A DNA stretch of 64,000 nucleotides from positions 50,158,001 through 50,222,000 of the forward strand of contig OX597820.1 in assembly GCA_951406725.2 (NCBI GenBank), read 5' to 3'. Source of the DNA: Octopus vulgaris (Eukaryota). The first letter of the stretch is position 1; each line of letters begins with the position of its first letter. A program made the translations under genes and the position numbers. Shown piece after piece: positions 7,100-64,000 of this stretch. Below the pieces are notes generated by a model. It was not told the DNA's origin. It saw only the letters and a list, made by a program, of their open reading frames with translations, and did not search any database.

Positions 7100-7442
7100 T
7101 GTTGCTGCTGTTGCTGATTGTTTTTGCTACTGCTGTCATTGTTGTTGCTGTTGTCATGTTTTTTTGTTGCTGCTGTCATGTTTTTTTGTTGTTGCCGTTG
7201 TCGTCGCTGTTGTTGTTGTTTTCGTTGCTGTTGTTGCTGCTGCTGCTGCTGATGATGATGATGCTGTTGTTTCTTGATTGGTGTGCAAGAGGTTAAGAAC
7301 GTTACTCTTATTAATGCTATCGTTGCCGTTACCGATATTGATTTTCCTTTTGTTGTCATTCATGCACTGCTTCTAAGAGTCAGCATGTGCGGTCCAGGTA
7401 TTACAAAGACGGGCTGGATTATGTTTATAATGAAGCTGGTAT

Positions 7443-7780
7443 GAAGGCGCGTGGCTCAGTGGTTAGAACGTCGAGTTTACGATCGTGAGGTTGTGAGCTC
7501 GAATTCCGGACCGGGTTGCGTGTTGTGTTCTTGAGCAAGACACTTTATTTCACGTTGCTCCAGTTCACTCAACTGTAGAAATGAGTTGCGACGTCACAGG
7601 TGCCAAGCTGTATCGGCCCTTGCCTTTCCCTTGGACAACATCGGTGACGTGGAGAGGGGAGGCCGGTATGCATGGGCGACTGCTGGTCTTCCATAAAACA
7701 ACCTTGCCCAGACTTGTACATCAGAGGGTAACTCTTTAGGTGCAAACCCATGGTCAGTGTCTGACCGAGGGGGGTCACCA
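7443..7780 (+). mobile_element. tRNA-derived SINE family B
   Basis: A-box tggctcagtgg, B-box-like gctcgaattcc, body gtgttcttgagcaagacactttatttcacgttgctccag; paralogs at 51810-52136 and 62040-62358. Confidence 0.85.
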
Positions 7781-15253: not shown

Positions 15254-16854
15254 CAACAACACCAACAACAACAACAATGATAATAATAATAATGCTGATA
15301 ATAATAATTCATAGGGTGTTTTATTGGTAGAATCGGTAAAATAAAAGACAAAATGATCTATCGTATTTAAATAATTCCATTTGTATTGACGAAGGTGAGT
15401 TTGCCTATCATCCTTCCGAAACGCATTAGTGTTGGTGTACATTCGAGCAATTGTACACGTAATCCAATAAATGCAATCTTGTTCCTAATTTGGAAGTACT
15501 TATTGTGACTCATTTATAAAGGAAGCGGATGTTGTCAGGTCTAGTTGAATAGCAGGTGAATTGTATTACAGTGTTTAGTTACGTCACTTAACGGGTCTCA
15601 TTATTCAGTTCCACAAAGATTTTTGTTGTTGCTATAGTTGTTGCTATTATTATTTGTATTAGTGACATATTGAATATCACAGGAGATATATTCTCGAACT
15701 TATAACACGTATAAAAGGTCGTAACCAAAAGCAAGTCATCATCAGAGATTCGTATCTATCACATAAAGGAACAATTCCGGAGAAAATCCATAATTCTCTC
15801 GCAAGCTCTAAATATATTGAATGTGTATGTATTAGAATATAACAAAAATAGTTCCCCATCACTTCCGACGATAAATATTCCGTTGCTTGATCCATTGAAC
15901 TGTCAGGTCATTGAATAGCCATGTAAGTGACTAACTATTACATACCACTGAATCGCATACTATTTAACGTAATTCTAGGAGTGATACTATATAGTAAAAC
16001 TTGTTCTATACATTAAAAGTATAAACAGACGAGCTTTCTTGCACGCTAACTACTACAATATGCGATTCAAGAGTCTCCGTGGAGTTGTGGAGGTTAGAGC
16101 AATGGCAAAAAAGCCTAACCCATGATATAATACCGTGTGGACGGAGTCGGGATTTTATGAATTTAAAGCGAATTTCTTACCCATTTGTCCTGGTTCCCTT
16201 CACACACCACGGATTTTTGTCAGTGAACAGGTCGCGGTCTTAAAGCGACGAAAATATTTTGACAAATTAAACTTAAATGTTGAAGTGAATCGAACGGCTT
16301 TTGTGTGTTTCTTAAATGGCTTACAAACACCTTCCACGCTGCAATTGTATATATATATCTTTATTTATATAAAACTGAGAATGTGTGTCTGTGTGTCTGT
16401 CTGTCAGTGTGTTTCCCTAAAACTTGAGAACTACACAACCAATTTCATTCAAATTTTACACATGTCTTACTTAGGGTCCATGTAGTTTCATGGGCAAAAA
16501 AATGTTCAACTTCTTGCCTAGAGCAAGCCCATAGCAATATCATATCTTCTCCACTATTTCAGTATTACGTGTTAAAAGTTAAACAAAAACATTTCTCTAT
16601 TTTATGTCAGATACTTTCACTTTAACAATAAAAATAATAATAACAATTGAATTATATATAGTAAGTAATAATTAAAATCAAACTAAAGTATAATATATAA
16701 TCGTAACATAACAGAAGTAAAAATAGCAATTGGTATAAAATTGCATCAATGACTTGAACTTGAATAAGTGGTTTCACATGAATGAGAATAAATTAAAAAT
16801 AAAATTAGCGTGCAGAAATGGAATAGTCCAGATGGATAATAAAAAATTAAATTA

Positions 16855-16901
16855 AAGAAAAGACTATTGTCTATAAAGTATACAATGTAGAGAAAAAAGG
16901 T
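16855..16901 (+). pseudogene. Left half of an older ORF1 relative (KEKTIVYKVYNVEKKG)
   Basis: Colinear with DKRTIVYRVCANERKR of the young ORF1. Confidence 0.55.
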
Positions 16902-16918
16902 CGTTTTTTTTCGGCTCC

Positions 16919-18652
16919 GTGTTTTTTTTTCGGCTCCTGAAAATTCGGTAAAAAAGAACAAAAAAGGTTGTTGTTGTTGTGGAAATTCTGAACGGCGTTG
17001 ACGCGGTTTCGCGTTTCGCTCGTTCAGCGCGTTACACTTTTTCTGTTTTGGCGGCCGTTTTCGGTCTGTCAGACAGAAGGAAATGGACTATGAGTCTCTA
17101 ACAGACTTGTCCACGACGGATGAGGAACTGGAACAGGCAATTGCAGTGAAGCTGATGGAGGAAAAGGCTGGAGTTTTCGAGTCTTTATCGGACTTGTCTA
17201 CGTCTGAGGAGGAGCTAGAAATGGCAGTGAGGAAAATGGATCAGAAGCTGGGTTATACCTATGCCGGTGTAACCAGGAGGGCGGAGGAGAAAGGGGTCGA
17301 CATGGCCAAGTTGCCAAGTTACCAGAAATACATGGAAAAGGAAAGCGGTGAGGTGGAACTATCACCGACACCCAGGAGAAAAGAATGGTATGACAAGAGG
17401 ACCATTGTTTACAGGGTGTGCGCAAACGAAAGGAAGAGGGTAGAAGTTGTATCCATGGAATGGATAGAGGAAGCCCTGCGAAGAACTGAGGAGGAAATAA
17501 ATTTTCTGACTCGAGGATCCAAGTACGGGACCGTAGTTGTGCACTTTAAAAGTGAATCTGCAGCGAGGAAGATGGCAGCGAAGGCGGTGAAGTCGGAAAA
17601 GGTAACACTGTTACCTACGTATTTAAACAGGAGGATTACACGAATAAGGGTGGAGGGAGTGCCACCAAACGTGGAGGCAGAATGGATTGTGGCGGCTGTG
17701 ATCAGCGGCCACGAGGACGAAGTGGATATTCTCCATGCCTCGGTTAAGTCCGAGGGCTGGAGAGGCGTAACAGTGGAGCTGAACGTACAGGCAGAGACCG
17801 AGGTACTGGTGGACCTGACGGAAAGCATCAGACTGGGAGAAGTGATCATGAGAGTGTGGGTGGAGGGCAGGGCTCCACGTTGTTACAAGTGTGGCCTGAG
17901 GGGTCACATAAGAGCCTTCTGCCCTCCCCAGGGAAAGAAATGGATCCCGAACCAGAGAGAGAGAAGCAGAAACCAGAGGAGAAGGAAACAGAGGAAGAGA
18001 ATACACAGAAATGGAAGGAAGCTGGAAGTAAGAGGAAGAGAAGAATATGTGGAAAAAAAGAAAATAATATGGAACTCCAATCTACCCCAAAACCTCCCAC
18101 ATCCTCTGAGTCCCACCCTATCCATGCAGACATTGAACCCACCCGCTCCCCCCCAACAAGAAAACAAAAAAAAAAAAAGAATACACACACACAAGAGATT
18201 GAAATCGAACCCAGGCCGTACATTTGTACTATGACTGAACAGAGGGAAGTTAAAAGTCTAATGGAAGAGTATAAACGGTATGATGTTGGAGAGACTAGGT
18301 ATGCTGTGATTGAAAAAAAGAACATAGGTGAGTTTATGGGGAGGTGTGAAAGGGAGAATTGGGAGGTGAAAGATATAAGAATGAGCGATGAATTCGTGGA
18401 AAATATGAATGAGTATTTCGGAGTAAGAATGGATATGGAATTTATTCGTATTGGCAAAGAACATTCAAGTGACTATGAAAAACAAAGGACAGGTAAGTGA
18501 TGCTGACGGACGGGGCCGTTGGTATCGCTTTCATTTTATCATTTTTTCGTTTAACACTTCATGTTCATATAGTTTAATTATAATGTTCTATGTCCCCATG
18601 TTTTGTGATGTCCGGCACTCTTCGTAGCCCCTTAGTGGGTAATAAAGAAATA
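16919..18652 (+). mobile_element. ORF1-only non-LTR retroelement, copy 1 (HAL1-like)
   Basis: About 1.73-kb unit: T-rich 5' end, one gag-like ORF, 3' tail tagccccttagtgggtAATAAAgaaata; near-identical to 18653-20383. Confidence 0.8.
17083..18500 (+). CDS. LINE ORF1/gag-like nucleic-acid-binding protein, about 472 aa, one frameshift near 17925
   Basis: RRM-like region plus CX2CX4HX4C knuckle CYKCGLRGHIRAFC (17881-17922); a poly-C run one C shorter than in copy 2 splits it into track ORFs 17083-18234 and 17856-18500. Confidence 0.8.
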
Positions 18653-20383
18653 CGTTTTTTTTCGGCTCCTGAAATTCGGTAAAAAAGAACAAAAAGCGTT
18701 GTTGTTGTTGTGGAAATTCTGAACGGCGTTGACGCGGTTTCGCGTTTCGCTCGTTCAGCGCGTTACACTTTTTCTGTTTTGGCGGCCGTTCTCGGTCTGT
18801 CAGACAGAAGGAAATGGACTATGAGTCTCTAACAGACTTGTCCACGACAGATGAGGAACTGGAACAGGCAATTGCAATGAAGCTGATGGAAGAAAAGGCT
18901 GGAATTTTCGAGTCTTTATCAGACCTGCCTACGTCTGAGAAAGAGCTAGAAATGGCAGCAAGGAATTTGGAAGAGAAGCTGGGTTATACCTATGCCGGTG
19001 TAACCAAGAAGGCGGAAGAGAAAGGGGTAGACATGGCCAAGTTGCCAAGTTACCAGAAATACATGAAAAAGGAAAGCGGTGAGGTGGAACTATCACCGAC
19101 ACCCAGGAGAAAGGAATGGTATGATAAGAGGACCATTATTTACAGGGTGTTCGCAAACGAAAGGAAGAGGGTAGAAGTTGTAACCATGGAATGGATAGAG
19201 GAGGCCCTGCGAAGAACTGAGGAGGAAATAAATTTTCTGACTCGAGGATCCAAGTACGGTACCGTAGTTGTGCATTTCAAAACTGAGTCTGCAGCGAGGA
19301 AGATGGCGGCGAAGGCGGTGAAGTCAGAAAAGGTAACCCTATTACCTACGTATTTAAACAGGAGGATTACACGAATAAGGGTGGAGGGAGTGCCACCAAA
19401 CGTGGAGGCAGAATGGATTGTGGCGGCTGTGATCAGCGGCCACGAGGACGAAGTGGATATTCTCCATGCCTCGGTTAAGTCCGAGGGCTGGAGAGGCGTA
19501 ACGGTGGAGCTGAACGTACAGGCAGAGACCGAGGTACTGGTGGACCTGACGGAAAGCATCAGACTGGGAGACGTGATCATGAGAGTGTGGGTGGAGGGCA
19601 GGGCTCCACGTTGTTACAAGTGTGGCCTGAGGGGTCACATAAGAGCCTTCTGCCCTCCCCCAGGGAAAGAAATGGATTCCGAACCAGAGAGAGAGAAGCA
19701 GAAACCAGAGGAGAAGGAAACAGAGGAAGAGAATACACAGAAATGGAAGGAAGCTGGAAGTAAGAGGAAGAGAAGAATACGTGGAAAAAAAGAAAATAAT
19801 ATGGAACTCCAATCTACCCCAAAACCACCCACACCCTCTGAGTCCCACCCTATCCATGCAGACATTGAACCCACCCGCTCCCCCCCAACAAGAAAACAAA
19901 AGAAAAAAAGAATACACACACACAAGAGATTGAAATCGAACCCAGGCCGTACATTTGTACTATGACTGAACAGAAAGAAGTTAAAAGTCTAATGGAAGAG
20001 TATAAATGGTATGATGTTGGAGAGACTAGGTATGCTGTGATTGAAAAGAAGAACATAGGTGAGTTTATGGGGAGGTGTGAAAGGGAGAATTGGGAGGTGA
20101 AAGATATAAGAATGAGCGATGAATTCGTGGAAAATATGGATGAGTATTTCGGAGTAAGAATGGATATGGAATTTATTCGTATTGACAAAGAACATTCAAG
20201 TGACTATGAAAAACAAAGGACAGGTAAGTGATGCTGACGGACGGGGCCGTTGGTATCGCTTTCATTTTATCATTTTTTTCGTTTAACAATTCATTTTCAT
20301 AAAGTTTAATTATAATGTTCTATGTCCCCATGTTTTGTTATGTCCGCCATTCTTCGTAGCCCCTTAGTGGGTAATAAAGAAAT
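18653..20383 (+). mobile_element. ORF1-only non-LTR retroelement, copy 2
   Basis: Direct repeat of copy 1 at 1731-bp offset, same 5' end and AATAAA tail. Confidence 0.8.
18814..20231 (+). CDS. LINE ORF1/gag-like protein, about 472 aa, one frameshift near 19905
   Basis: CCHC knuckle at 19612-19653; an A-rich run one base shorter than in copy 1 splits it into track ORFs 18814-19965 and 19962-20231. Confidence 0.8.
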
Positions 20384-20680
20384 CACATGGAGGAAAGCAC
20401 CTTCGAAAAGTGTCTTGGTGCGACTATGAAAGATATCTAATCAGAGGCGGTAAATTCGCCACAATAGAAGCAAGGTTCGAGTCAACGGAGCGTGCAAGGG
20501 AGTACTCGACTCGAACTTGCAAAGTGAAAATATTTTATTTTTACCTTTATATCTGGGACGTAGGACGTCCCGGATAAAAATTTAAAATGTTCCCCCCCCG
20601 GAAGTAGAGGTAGGCTTGATTGTAGCCACACTTCTATACACGAGGGAGGACAAAATACAATTGATCGAAATTACAAGAGA
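20384..20680 (+). pseudogene. Right half of the older, decayed ORF1 relative
   Basis: Frameshifted MEESTFEKCL..YLIRGGKFATIEARFESTERARE..LQSENILFLPLYLGRRTSRIKI*NVPPPEVEVGLIVA aligns to FLTRGSKYGTVVVHFKSESAARK..VKSEKVTLLPTYLNRRITRIRVEGVPPNVEAEWIVA. Confidence 0.7.
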
Positions 20681-20875
20681 CGGGCTAACAATTCCAGTCT
20701 GTTATATATTTTGAGTATTGTTATCACTAGCGATAACAAGATATAACTTTGTATTTTGTATTTCATGTGTAGATGTATATATATATATAGATGTACATGT
20801 AATATGTACACATATATAAACACATATATACATGCACTAGCACTATGACCCGGCAACGACGGGTCTGTAATGCTA

Positions 20876-20928
<53 letters not shown>

Positions 20929-28652: not shown

Positions 28653-28885
28653 GGCGGCGAGCTGGCAGAATCGTTAGCACGCCGGGCGAAATGCGTAGCC
28701 GTATTTCGTCCGCCGTTACGTTCTGAGTTCAAATTCCGCCGAGGTCGACTTTGCCTTTCATCCTTTTGGGTTCGATAAATAAAGTACCAGTTTCGCACTG
28801 GCGTCGATGTAATCGACATAATCCCTTTGTCTGTCCTTGTTTGTCCCTTCTATGTTTAGCCCCTTGTGGGAAGTAACGAAATATA
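28653..28885 (+). mobile_element. SINE family A, young, Tx1-like tail, with TSD
   Basis: Complete head to tail; tatatatataagattgtta duplicated at 28556-28574 and 28886-28904. Confidence 0.9.
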
Positions 28886-31701: not shown

Positions 31702-32688
31702 GAAATAGAAGAGTGCCATATCATGCGAAATTTGTTGAACAATATTTCGGCATCTAGCGTGCCTTCCACAGGTTCAAAATTACATGTCAGTTTACTTCAC
31801 ATGATATGGCACTCTTCTATTAATACATAATTAATACATAATTTACTATAATTACTCAATAAACAACACGAAGCGTTCTCTAGAAGAAACATAAATGCTA
31901 TCGTACCTTTAGATTCTTCCAATGTCCAAATGCAAGTAAAATCAACTCACATGTTTATAGGTATCCATGGTCGTTAAAATATACGTACGTTTTTTTCTTC
32001 TCTATCGGCATAAGCTAGGTAGCTGCAATAATATTTTTATAAATTAAAAAAAAATTTAATTTCAATTTCTAATCTATAGCGTTTTTAATTTTTAATTTGT
32101 AATCTATAGCCGTTTTAATTTTTAATTATTAATTCTTAATGTTTATTCTTTATCCATTTTTTGATCTTATATATACTCCCTCAAGTTAGGCATCTATTTT
32201 TACTATCCCTAGTGACCACTTAGCGAAATTTTCTTTCTGAGCACGTCGAACCTAAAATTTACAATATAGAATTGATAGACAGAAATACCATCCTCCTCCA
32301 CTTTTCCAAATCCCTAACACCTGACCTCTGAACCCGAAATGACACAAAGAATAATATTGGCATCTTAACTTTATCTTATTTCAAAATTTTATATTTTGTA
32401 TTACTTTCGCTCTCATAATTCTTTCCTACACCTATCCCATTAATTTTTTTCTCTCTTTCTCCTCTCTCTTCTATTCACTCACTCATAACCCATATATGTC
32501 TATCGTAGTGCCTGCCTTTCTCTCTATATATACCCACGTGAACCATTTTCATACTAGCTAATCAATTAATTCTATTTCTTCAACATAAACGCAAAAGTCA
32601 AAATACTGCCAAAATGCTACCTTGATTTACCTGGAATTATACTTAAGGGCCTATACCTTCACGGAAGTACCCTCTGGAAGATGAGCTT

Positions 32689-34500
32689 CTAGGCTCAAAT
32701 TATAGGCAGACCTATAAACGACAAAAACTATAGTATAAAACTATTATTGTAAAACTATAGGCAGAACTATCGACAAGCTATAGGCAAAACTATAGGCTAC
32801 AATTCAGCCTATAGTTTTTGCCTCTAGCTTCAGCTTATATTTTGCCAATATTTTTTGCAGCTATAGTTTTGCTGCCTAGAGTTTTTGCCTATAGTTATGT
32901 ATTTAAGTGAACTTTTCTACCCTTTAGATTTTAGCCTATAGTTTTGCCTAACTTCAGCCTATAGATTTTCTATAGTTTTAGCCTATTGTTTTTTGTCGTC
33001 TGCCTATAGTTTTTGTCGCCTATAGATTTGCCTATAGGTTTGGCATATAGTTTTGCCTATATTTCTGCCAATAGTTTGCCTATAGTTTTTTTGAAAAACT
33101 ATAGGCTGAAATTACTATAGGCGAAAATCTAACAGCAAACTATAGGCAAAGTATGGGCATGAGAACTATAGCCAAAACTGACAAAAAATATAAGCTATGA
33201 GGCCAAAATATAGGCAAAACTATAGGCTAAATTCAAATACATAATTATAGGCAATAACGATAGGCAGCAAAACTATAGCCGCAAAAAATATTGGCAGGCT
33301 GAAACTAGAGGCAAAACTATAGGCTGAAAGTATAGGCAAATTATACCTGGCCTCAAATTTTGTCGCTTATAGATTTTTGTCTATAATTTGAGCCTATATC
33401 TTTTGTCGACTATGAAATAGTTTTAGACTATAAAAATAGTTTTAGACTATAGTTTTATATAGGTCTGCCGCTTTGCTTATATTTATCGCGTATTATTTTG
33501 TCTATAGTTTTGTCGCCTATAGTTTGCTATAATTTTGTCTATACTTTTTGTAGCCTATAGTACCAGCCCGTTCATTATAGTCCTGCCTATCATTTTAGCA
33601 TATATCTTTGCCTATAGTCCTCGTCTAAATTTGCCTAAAGTTTTTTCACCTATTGCTTTTGTCGCTACTGCCCTTAGTTTTAGCCTATAGTTTTGCATAT
33701 GTTTTGCCTATAGTTTTATCTATAGTTTTTTGCCTATATTAATTAGACTAGTCTGCTTATAGGTTCTGTCGCCTATACTTTGCCTATAGATTTAGCCTAT
33801 AGTTTTTGTCTTATCGTAATTTCAGCCTATTGTTAACCAATAGTTTTTTCACCTAAATTTTACCTTTAGCTTTAGACTATAATTTTGCCTATAGTACATT
33901 CTGCCTAGCCTGTAGTTTGTCTTTTGTCTAGAAATTTCAGCTTTTATCGCCTATACTTTTTCAAATTTTTTTCGCATAACTCTTTGCCTATAGCTTCGGT
34001 CTATAGTTTTGCCTATAGTTTATCAAACGTGAACTTTTCTTCCCTATAGATTTTAGCCTATAGTTTGCCTATACGGTTTCACGTATAGCTTTGGCCTATA
34101 ATTCTTGCCTATGGTTGGCTTTAGTTATTCATATATTATTTATCGAAAGTGAACTTTTCTTCCCTATAGATTTTAGCCTATAGTTTGCCTATACGGTTTC
34201 ACGTATAGCTTCAGCCTATAATACTTGCCTATGGTTGGCTTTACTTATTCATATATTAGTTATCAAAAGTGAACTTTTCTTCCTTATAGATTTTAGCCTA
34301 TAGTTTTGCCTATATTTTATCTTCTTGTTTATATATTTTAGCTTATAGTTTTGCCTATAGCTTTTAGCGTATAGTTTTTGCGATTTTTAGCCAATTTTTT
34401 ATCAAATATATTGTTTTATGATATAATATATATATTTATCAACTATTTTAGCGTATCTTTTTTATGGATTTTCGCCTATATTTTTATCGCCTTATATTTT
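32689..34500. repeat. Degenerate (TTTTGCCTATAG)n-type satellite with fold-back inversions and a 120-bp higher-order repeat
   Basis: Dense gcctatag/ctataggc units switching strand; 120-bp tandem units at 34021-34140, 34141-34260 and 34261-34310 (partial). Confidence 0.85.
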
Positions 34501-34510
34501 CTTTCCTTAT

Positions 34511-35468
34511 ATTTTTGCAGATGATTCCAAGCTACTGAAGGTCATAAATGAGGCGAGTGACCGGACATGCCTTCAGTCAGATCTACTGGCTGTTATCCAA
34601 TGGGCAGAAAAAAACAATATGCTGCTGAACGAGGATAAATTTGAGTTAATCCACTTTGGAAAAGAGGATGCCCTGAAACTCCCATACTCCCTTCCTTCAG
34701 GTGAAACTCTCGCGGCGTCCAACAACATCAGAGACTTGGGAGTAATTGTGGACAACAACATAAGCTGGGCCACTCATATAAACACCAAAGTTGACATGGC
34801 CCGCAGAATGTGTTCCTGGATTCTCAGAACTTTCCAGTCGAGAGATATCCACACCATTATCCTTCTCTTCTCCACTTTTGCCCGACCCCACCTTGTTGTC
34901 CACTGTGGTCTCCCCACACAATAAAAGGTATCATAAAAGTTGAAGCACCTCAAAGGGCAATCACAAAAAAGATAGATGGCATGACAGGCCTCGGCTATTG
35001 GGGTCGACTAGAAAAGCTAAAACTTTATTCCCTCCAACGTGGTCGTGAGCGCTACATCATCTGCATGATGTGGAAAATATTCCATCAGCATTGCCCAAAT
35101 GATGTTGGCATCACCTTTAAGGTACATCCAAGGCTTGGGCCCCGTGCCATCCGCCCAAAACAAAAATCGCACTCTCATCTCATAACAACAATACGGCACT
35201 ATTATTTCACCTCAATTGGCCCCGCTCTCTTTAACATTACACCAAAACACATTAAAACAGAAACTGACCCTATAGGGTTCAAGAAGTCTCTGGACAGATT
35301 CCTTCAAGAAATAATCCCGGATAAACCCCCTACACCCAGATATGTCTCTGTAAACAATAACTCTCTACTTGAGTGCCCAAATTCTGACTTGAAAGACTTC
35401 ACCAGGTGGTGCTATTAAGTTAGACATGGCCTGGGCCAATAATGGCCGAAACCTATCAAAGTATCAAA

Positions 35469-51809: not shown

Positions 51810-52136
51810 ATTGAGTCATGACTGACCATGGGATTGCACGTAGAAAGTTACCCTCCCAGGCACCAGTCCAGCCAAGATTGTTTATGGAAGACCAGCAGTC
51901 GCCCATGCATACCAGCCTTCCCTCTTCACTCCATCAGTGTTATCCAAGGGAAAGGCAAAGGCCGATACAGCTTGGCACTTGTGACGTCGCAAGTCATTTC
52001 TACAGTTGAGTGAACTGGAGCAACGCGAAATAAAGTGTCTTGCTCAAGAACACAACACGCAGCCCGGTCCGGGATTCGAACTCACAACCTCACGATCGTA
52101 AGCTCGACGTACTAACCACTGAGCCATGCGCCTTCA
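51810..52136 (-). mobile_element. SINE family B
   Basis: Reverse complement of 7443-7780, ending aaccactgagccatgcgccttc. Confidence 0.85.
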
Positions 52137-60732: not shown

Positions 60733-61490
<758 letters not shown>

Positions 61491-61503: not shown

Positions 61504-61887
61504 TGGAGGCGCAATGGCCCAGTGGTTAGGGCAGCGGACTCGTGGTCATAGGATCGCGGTTTCGATTCCCAAACCGGGCGTTGTGAGTGTTTATTGAGCG
61601 AAAACACCTAAAAGCTCCACGAGGCTCCGGCAGAGGATGGTGGTGATCCCTGCTGTACTCTTTCACCACAACTTTCTCTCACTCTTACTTCCTGTTTCTG
61701 TTGTACCTGTATTTCAAGGGGCCGGCCTTGTCACTTTCTGTGTCACGCTGAATATCCCCGAGGACTACGTCAAGGGTGCACGTGTCTGTGGAGTGCTCAG
61801 CCACTTACACGTTAATTTCACGAGCAGGCTGTTCCGTTGATTCGGATCAACCGGAACCCTCATCGTCGTAACCGACGGAGTGCTTCC
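61504..61887 (+). mobile_element. SINE family C, full length
   Basis: ggaggcgcaatggcccagtggttagggcagcggactc...cgtcgtaaccgacggagtgc. Confidence 0.9.
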
Positions 61888-63171: not shown

Positions 63172-63173
63172 AA

Positions 63174-63391
63174 CGCGGCGAGCTGGCACAGAAACGTTAG
63201 CATGCCGGGCGAAACGCGTACCCGTATTTCGTCTGTCGTTACGTTCTAGGTTCAAATTCCGCCGAGGTCGACTTTGCCTTTCATCCTTTCATGGGCGTAC
63301 CAGTTACGCACTGGGGTCGATGTAATCTACTTAATTCGTTTGTCTGTCCTTATTTGTCCCCGCTGTGTTTAGCCCCTTGTGGGTAGTAAAG

Positions 63392-63395
<4 letters not shown>
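63174..63395 (+). mobile_element. SINE family A with Tx1-like tail
   Basis: gcggcgagctggca...ggttcaaattccgccgaggtcgac...tagccccttgtgggtagtaaagaaata, inserted in (TA)n. Confidence 0.85.
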
Positions 63396-63437
<42 letters not shown>

Positions 63438-63589
63438 ACATATATATAGATAAATACATACACAGACATGCATACGTACTTACATACATACGTGTATATA
63501 TATATATATAAACACACACATATCCATCTATCAACAACTCCCCCTCCTTCTCCCTCTTGTTATATATATATATATATATATTGTGTGTG

Positions 63590-64000
63590 TGTAACCATTC
63601 AGAGTCACTACACAAAGAAGATAGACTCCCTGAAGAGGAGACGAGAGAGATATGCACTGCTACACATATGGAAATTTTGGAGGATCTAGCTCGAAATTTC
63701 GGATTTGAAAGCTACAACAATCCCCGAACAAGAAGGCAGTGCACAGTCAGTACGAAAGGTCCCATCTTCTCCATCGAGAATACAAACCCAATATTGTAAT
63801 AGTTTGGGATTCAAGGGACCACAACTTTCTAATGCCCTACAACAGAACGTCAAAGATCTGCGAGCTGTGGACATGGAAGTCTTCAAAAAACTTCTAGACA
63901 TTTTTTTTATATCTGCAAAACGGGATAAACCCACGTTGCGGCAAGAGGCACAAAGAAAAGCGGTAACGTCGAACTCACTACTTCACGACCAGTAATACTG
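63590..64000 (+). mobile_element. Decayed CR1-type LINE ORF2 C-terminus
   Basis: [39 protein letters not shown]...VFKKLLD..DKPT..SNSLL; homologous to 34940-35370. Confidence 0.75.

Follow-up and report, generated by a model that had tools for sequence, protein, structure and literature searches.

How can a repeat that codes for a putative RNA-binding protein, and for no reverse transcriptase (RT), be copied into new sites? This question is raised by a 64,000-nt stretch of the Octopus vulgaris genome (assembly GCA_951406725.2, contig OX597820.1, positions 50,158,001 to 50,222,000 of the forward strand), here called the window, in which two units lie head to tail at 16923-18651 and 18655-20383 with 96.5% identity over 1731 nt in a pairwise alignment. 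Both units are GC-rich, and the surrounding window is AT- and microsatellite-rich. An earlier note on this DNA had taken them for two complete copies of a 1.73-kb non-autonomous retroelement of the HAL1 kind, which has open reading frame (ORF) 1 only, is of probable Tx1/L1 origin and borrows its RT in trans. The two units of that length were confirmed, and an ORF1-only, non-autonomous element without long terminal repeats (LTRs) is supported by a target duplication, empty sites, multi-copy variants, apparent purifying selection, the lack of an ORF2 past the 3' end and relatives in octopods. What the note had overlooked is that the units are nested, that they sit in a Helitron-like carrier and that their 3' tail also occurs in a short interspersed element (SINE). 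We hold it to be probable that the nested units are two copies of a multi-copy element whose protein has the predicted fold of two RNA recognition motifs (RRMs) and one zinc knuckle, and which is a derivative of a long interspersed element (LINE), whereby its 3' tail would recruit the ORF2 protein (ORF2p) of an autonomous, probably Tx1/L1-type LINE.

Two nested copies and their insertion footprints

The units are not arranged in tandem, but copy 1 is located inside the head of copy 2, since the 17-bp sequence that is duplicated around copy 1 is the copy 2 head itself (Table 1). For the analysis of the insertion history, contigs or reads of four runs (X1, X2, X3, and X21) were aligned to 18592-20860; X2 and X3 are RNA by guess only, and X21 is a raw-read run with the same species label. 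Both X2 and X3 contained a copy-2-like monomer, whereby its left loose end equals the left flank of the window and its right end continues into 20384 onwards. This monomer differs from copy 2 by 1 letter over about 940-990 nt, a region in which copies 1 and 2 differ at 40 sites. In addition, compared to copy 2, 10 nt are inserted at 18680 in the 5' untranslated region (UTR) of the X2/X3 monomer, and the right flank in X3 lacks 22 nt at 20407. Empty sites, which join both copy-2 flanks with 10 other bases in between, were found in three of the four runs (40 contigs of X1, 1 of X2, and 2 of X3), and the majority letters of X1 were those of copy 1 at 10 of the 12 variant sites checked. From the monomer, the empty sites, and the copy-1-like majority letters it follows that copy 2 came first, at the cost of 10 bp of its target, and that copy 1, which belongs to another subfamily, entered its head later. 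Defined ends, the 17-bp target duplication of copy 1, and the empty sites are footprints of retrotransposition. Both the 17-bp duplication and the presence of identical flanks around the copy-2-like monomer led to the rejection of a simple tandem duplication.

The unit is multi-copy in X1, where 11,380 contigs with many variants among them were aligned and where the summed depth over the unit was 1.6e5-6.5e5 compared to 30-60 for rare pieces, a measure that is not a copy number. At a loose end behind 18659, one X3 contig contains the tail and a repeat of the T-rich start, after which it continues with 255 nt of different sequence; this hints that tails may join the heads of related elements elsewhere.

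The distance from ATG to stop is 1418 nt in each copy and thus not divisible by 3, as copy 1 lacks one base of a C run and copy 2 one base of an A run. Both readings therefore stop at 383 aa (amino acids), and the earlier description of two complete copies with an ORF of about 472 aa does not hold for the window. By arithmetic, the addition of one base to either frame yields 472 codons. An extra A behind 19902 was present in 36 contigs of X1 and in one contig each of X2 and X3, and no indel in the C run was listed when contigs were aligned on copy 2. Thus, the single frame of 472 aa is likely the state of the family, and the frame breaks are likely copy-specific or assembly errors. Between the ORF1 stop and the 3' end of the unit there is a 3' UTR of 152 nt, in which neither an endonuclease (EN) nor an RT can be accommodated, as had been noted before. 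One X3 contig spans the 3' junction (20171-20458) and enters the flank without an ORF2, so that the check for an ORF2 continuation came out in favor of an ORF1-only unit; an X2 contig at the same junction contains 30 flank letters only, which is below the 31-letter rule. No introns were found in the units, nor were there terminal repeats inside a unit. A Pfam scan of 123 of the 152 window frames left after filtering, none of them shorter than 62 aa, did not reveal any EN or RT. Fusions of ORF1 and ORF2 were not found either among proteins of 1508-4305 aa, which is weak evidence.

The ORF1 protein and its relatives

The protein begins with an acidic motif that is duplicated (residues 4-19 and 33-48), followed by an RRM-like region and a CX2CX4HX4C knuckle, all of which had been recognized from the letters. 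The AlphaFold2 model, which was built from an alignment of 125 sequences, reached a mean predicted local distance difference test (pLDDT) score of 88.4 and displayed a tandem-RRM fold. Its best Foldseek matches were tandem-RRM proteins (E 7e-5), and VIA-align to the La RRM gave a Z of 9.3 with a root-mean-square deviation of 2.5 over 81 aligned residues. Pfam zf-CCHC matched the window knuckle at E 0.05-0.07 only and was detected at E<=0.05 in 23 of the 125 aligned family members, and there was no Pfam match to Transposase_22 for the window proteins at E<=1. Thus, the protein is predicted to consist of two RRMs and one CCHC knuckle, which is the layout of a type I ORF1 protein (ORF1p) and consistent with Tx1 in non-mammalian animals (PMC5203782; here and below, citations refer to parts of the respective papers). 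The C-terminal 101 aa were modeled with a pLDDT of 61.5 and showed no fold match (best Z 3.8) and no likeness to the C-terminal domains of relatives. The ratio of nonsynonymous to synonymous differences (pN/pS) between the copies was 0.25 over codons 1-280 (Fisher p about 2e-5) and 0.13 from RRM1 to the knuckle (p about 3e-5). These low values indicate, from the comparison of the two copies, that the ORF has been under purifying selection.

Residues 1-291 were compared with 1.84 billion representatives, which led to 355 protein clusters at E<=0.001, whereby a few of these matches (e.g., P0001 and P0015) were due to knuckle repeats alone. Thirty relatives were looked up, and all 16 with organism names came from Octopus vulgaris, O. 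sinensis, O. bimaculoides, or Argonauta hians, which points to an octopod as the host. Among octopods, the relatives are 20-59% identical. A word-index protein search gave zero matches, and the relative P0089 was not found in metagenome contigs. The Logan contigs with seven looked-up relatives are element-sized with a length of 1.3-2.4 kb, four of one cluster having 1.85-1.93 kb; short contigs are common anyway. In the Atlas, look-alikes comprised mollusc CCHC clusters at 0.93 and clusters with the ZCCHC3-like RNA-binding domain at 0.89, the latter being below the threshold of 0.9 and a lead only. In six cases (P0027, P0067, P0082, P0095, P0132, and P0152) gene models fuse pieces of the ORF1 family to domains of host proteins or of other transposons (integrase, LDLa, zinc-finger, and WD40); these fusions are likely annotation artifacts from intronic insertions.

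The carrier, the shared tail and the alternatives

The target of copy 2 was itself an older ORF1 relic, of which 10 bp were replaced, and this relic is embedded in a repeat with the ends of a Helitron. Helitrons have a 5' TC and a 3' hairpin that is followed by CTRR, and they insert between A and T. All of these features are matched by the carrier with its start at 16358 and its end at 20876. The hairpin has a z of -3.09, and 0 of 200 shuffles folded equally well. The inner part of the carrier occurs at high depth in X1-X3, and its flank depth in X1 is 0.3-1.2e6. Other copies of the carrier hold a SINE-type tail at 20689 (X3 loose end) or an internal deletion (X1 loose end before 20684), and the carrier is therefore a polymorphic multi-copy repeat.

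It might be that the units derive from a one-off, internally deleted LINE relic which spread mainly as passive cargo of this carrier and never formed a self-sustaining family. The X2/X3 monomers indeed have exactly the carrier flanks, the depth of the carrier flanks in X1 equals or exceeds that of the unit, and no many-contig loose ends at the unit ends occur among the X1 rows listed. However, a 17-bp duplication of its own surrounds copy 1, there are 57 positions at which it departs from copy 2, and the pN/pS between the two is 0.13-0.25, so that lineages with a selected ORF have moved separately. Moreover, the copy-1-like majority letters of X1 are unlike those of the carrier monomer. We therefore regard passive spread as the main route as improbable.

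Evidence for the trans mobilization of a LINE derivative comes from the 3' end. Both copies lack a poly(A) tract at their ends. Of the AATAAA tail that had been reported about 150 nt past the stop, the distance and the position of AATAAA close to the end of the UTR are correct, but the hexamer is part of a terminal motif that is shared with the SINE. A loose version of this motif occurs six times in the window, namely in both units, in three SINE copies, and at 61466-61490. The mean in 40 simulated sequences was 0.025, a contrast which is overstated because the motif was designed from these hits. The tail pattern had 0 matches in viral contigs and 0 in metagenome contigs. One X1 contig carries an extra GAAATA after the tail, hinting at a short terminal repeat. 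The SINE is about 230 nt long and abundant, with three full copies, all of which end in the shared tail, and about ten partial copies in the window. We take its center to resemble a Deu domain and also assumed a tRNA head, for which ARAGORN found no tRNA (0 hits); Rfam gave 0 hits as well. Usually, SINEs and their partner LINEs have 3' tails in common (PMC4494074), and the sharing of the tail thus strengthens the earlier suggestion that RT is borrowed in trans, which stays a conditional one.

A candidate for the type of the partner is the 5'-truncated LINE end at 61490, whose peptide is identical in 23 of 24 residues to an O. bimaculoides gene model. This fragment presumably represents a Tx1/L1 ORF2 C-terminus, a label that no database confirmed; its 59 aa had no Pfam, PDB, or Atlas match. 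It is located within an (ATCT)n tract, and a second SINE-like repeat begins directly after it, near 61505. Two other LINE-like 3' ends on the forward strand (34427-35418 and 63500-63992), which we assume to be CR1-like, are ORF2 C-terminal fragments without the shared tail and without a Pfam match at E<=0.001. As to the Tx1/L1 origin that had been proposed, the Atlas lead of 0.89, the type I ORF1 layout, and the label given to the LINE fragment make it plausible. For O. vulgaris, 13 recently active L1-Tx1 families have been annotated (PMC13282606).

The same mechanism might also operate with an RT of another clade (CR1, L2, Nimb, RTE, or Dong-R4), whereby the tail would have been gained by template switching. 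The type I ORF1 with RRM and CCHC is not unique to Tx1. The element tail has no poly(A) and resembles that of the SINE (25/27) more closely than that of the LINE fragment (18/22), and tails of bivalve SINEs trace to CR1, CR1-Zenon, L2, and Nimb (PMC11481361). The sole LINE end in the window that has the motif, however, looks by our assumption like a Tx1/L1 ORF2 C-terminus, and the two presumably CR1-like ends lack it. Altogether, a partner from one of these clades seems quite improbable.

That the units represent a domesticated host gene of the ZCCHC3 or L1TD1 type in tandem duplication would agree with the purifying selection, the ZCCHC3-like Atlas clusters at 0.89, and the annotation of relatives as host genes, but it is already contradicted by the empty sites, and the target duplication, the retroelement tail, the many variant copies, the lack of introns, the broken frames of both copies, and the low identity among octopod relatives render it highly improbable. 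A tandem of gag-only elements, either of the LTR type or Penelope-like, would agree with the match of the knuckle to retroviral nucleocapsids in the PDB and with the head-to-tail look of the units. It is equally improbable, as the predicted fold is RRM-RRM and not capsid, a unit has no terminal repeats, and the tail is common to a SINE.

Several observations weigh against the reading of the units as copies of a LINE derivative that is mobilized via its tail. Both window copies are frameshifted, and a template-jump dimer could mimic the duplication around copy 1, because the duplicated 17 bp equal the head of the family itself. Although the unit is multi-copy in X1, just two insertion events were resolved and are documented, and the carrier may supply part of the copy number. 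X21 gave two of 12,895,792 reads, both less than 90% alike, and zero depth even on the carrier flank, so that this run either stems from another species or lacks the family. The tail of the LINE fragment is only 18/22 nt identical to the element tail (pairwise E 0.008), and the tail hairpin does not exceed shuffles in stability (z -1.9 to +1.0 for five tails). Pfam RBD_ZCCHC3 was not among the matches listed for the alignment (25 of 44 families). Finally, a full partner ORF2 was not found in the window frames, in the fused-protein search, or with the tail pattern in viral and metagenome contigs.

Two further features of the window are a degenerate 12-13-nt minisatellite of about 2.5 kb at 32000-34520 with a 120-nt higher-order repeat, and a 256-nt inverted pair (7442-7697 and 51881-52136) with 93% complementarity, which probably represents two copies of another short repeat.

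Table 1. Positions of the nested units, their parts, and associated repeats in the window.
Feature	Position	Strand	Remarks
Copy 1, ORF1-only element	16919..18652	+	1734 nt; inserted in copy 2 head; bounded by exact 17-bp duplication
Left target-site duplication of copy 1	16902..16918	+	Identical to 18653-18669; within copy 2 head, which starts at 16900
Right target-site duplication of copy 1	18653..18669	+	Identical to 16902-16918
ORF1 of copy 1	17083..18500	+	Short by one base near 17926; reads 383 aa, with a C-terminal piece of 186 aa
Copy 1 3' terminal tail	18625..18652	+	26/28 identical to SINE end; no poly(A)
Copy 2, ORF1-only element	18653..20383	+	Older insertion; first 19 nt are 16900-16918; monomer with same flanks in X2 and X3
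ORF1 of copy 2	18814..20231	+	One-base loss in A run near 19900
Two tandem RRM-like domains (predicted)	19099..19605	+	Residues about 96-183 and 184-264; AlphaFold2, Foldseek, VIA
Single CX2CX4HX4C zinc knuckle	19609..19656	+	Residues 267-280; from sequence
Copy 2 3' terminal tail	20357..20383	+	25/27 identical to SINE ends 537-562 and 63370-63395, E 6e-5
Degraded ORF1 relative, left part (target of copy 2)	16860..16899	+	Translation resembles RRM1 start (by eye); contigs with empty sites connect it to 20384 onwards
Degraded ORF1 relative, right part	20384..20690	+	tblastn 32% over 66 aa, E 2e-7; family hidden Markov model, independent E 1.8e-17 and 4.5e-7
Helitron-like non-autonomous carrier	16358..20876	+	About 1.0 kb without insert; begins with TC behind A and ends with CTAG ahead of T; hairpin 20847-20865
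SINE copy ending in shared tail	63172..63396	+	Other full copies 331-563 and 28654-28883
5'-truncated LINE 3' end, candidate partner type	60852..61490	+	59-codon C-terminus, U-rich UTR, related tail

Proposed mechanism and place among ORF1-only elements

In the mechanism that we propose for the LINE derivative, the 5' UTR of the unit would drive its transcription, likely through RNA polymerase II. ORF1p would bind its own RNA in cis and build a particle, a role suggested by the predicted fold and by the selection on the ORF, since a purely passive passenger would show no purifying selection. The ORF2p of the partner LINE, probably of the Tx1/L1 type, would then recognize in trans the terminal motif of about 27 nt that the SINE also uses. 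Target-primed reverse transcription would insert the copy, whereby the outcome is a 17-bp duplication in the case of copy 1 and a 10-bp target loss in the case of copy 2. After copy 2 had entered the ORF1 relic in the Helitron-like repeat, the composite likely spread additionally with its carrier, and the insertion of copy 1 into the copy 2 head would have followed.

HAL1 has a 3' poly(A) tail, whereas the octopus element has none, shares its tail with a SINE, and resides in a mollusc. Like HAL1, it is non-autonomous, encodes ORF1p only, and would need ORF2p in trans; HAL1 keeps the 5' and 3' ends of its LINE (PMC5753468, PMC5786205). In contrast to the type I ORF1 with two RRMs and a knuckle, mammalian L1 has an ORF1 of the Transposase_22 type (PMC5203782). 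Owing to the ORF1 type and the lack of poly(A), the element is not a HAL1 in the strict sense. ORF1-only elements have arisen repeatedly: HeT-A from Jockey, HAL1 from L1, and Ag-Sponge from CR1 (PMC5786205), whereby HAL1 arose several times in mammals (PMC5753468), and TRE5-A.2 of Dictyostelium, which has no ORF2 and is moved with ORF2p that its autonomous partner supplies in trans (PMC5633606). With HeT-A and Ag-Sponge, the octopus element has in common that it is a bipartite, ORF1-only LINE derivative of an invertebrate (PMC5786205), but those have different parent clades, and the octopus units have no telomere context, their head-to-tail look being due to nesting. TRE5-A.2 likewise lacks ORF2, and mobilization in trans would be the shared feature (PMC5633606); unlike TRE5-A.2, which targets tRNA genes, the octopus element targets other repeats, and a single target motif was not seen among its insertions. 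The type I layout is consistent with Tx1-clade LINEs, from which the element differs by the absence of ORF2, and Xenopus Tx1 likewise inserts into a non-autonomous DNA transposon (PMC4494074). In contrast to SINEU families with poly(A) ends, the element ends in a short conserved motif (PMC4494074).

ORF1-only families are not mentioned in the parts considered of the main text of PMC13282606, nor did a term search of its supplement reveal any. The parts considered of PMC4824008, PMC4758252, PMC11481361, PMC11203168, PMC3747384, PMC9115989, and PMC10294476 contain neither an ORF1-only mollusc family nor a Tx1 partner for an octopus SINE. Overall, no report of an ORF1-only family in molluscs was found in the openly accessible literature; Repbase, Dfam, and the Zenodo library that accompanies PMC13282606, which lay outside the search, may already contain the family.

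If our reading is true, molluscs would join the hosts of protein-coding non-autonomous LINEs, and the parents of such elements would probably include a Tx1-type LINE. As the 355 related protein clusters and the element-sized Logan contigs hint, ORF1-only retroelements might, more tentatively and with the odds rather against it, have undergone a whole radiation in octopods. They would vie with a common SINE for a single Tx1-type ORF2p by means of a short shared non-poly(A) tail, nest in each other's heads, travel along inside Helitrons, and escape any annotation that relies on RT. Families of this kind would go unnoticed in RT-based surveys (e.g., PMC10294476), and Octopus proteomes list their ORFs as uncharacterized host genes. 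Whereas the SINE gets by with the tail and no protein, the ORF of the ORF1-only element appears to be under purifying selection. LINE, SINE, and ORF1-only element with one tail would thus constitute a natural three-way system for asking why a parasite retains ORF1.

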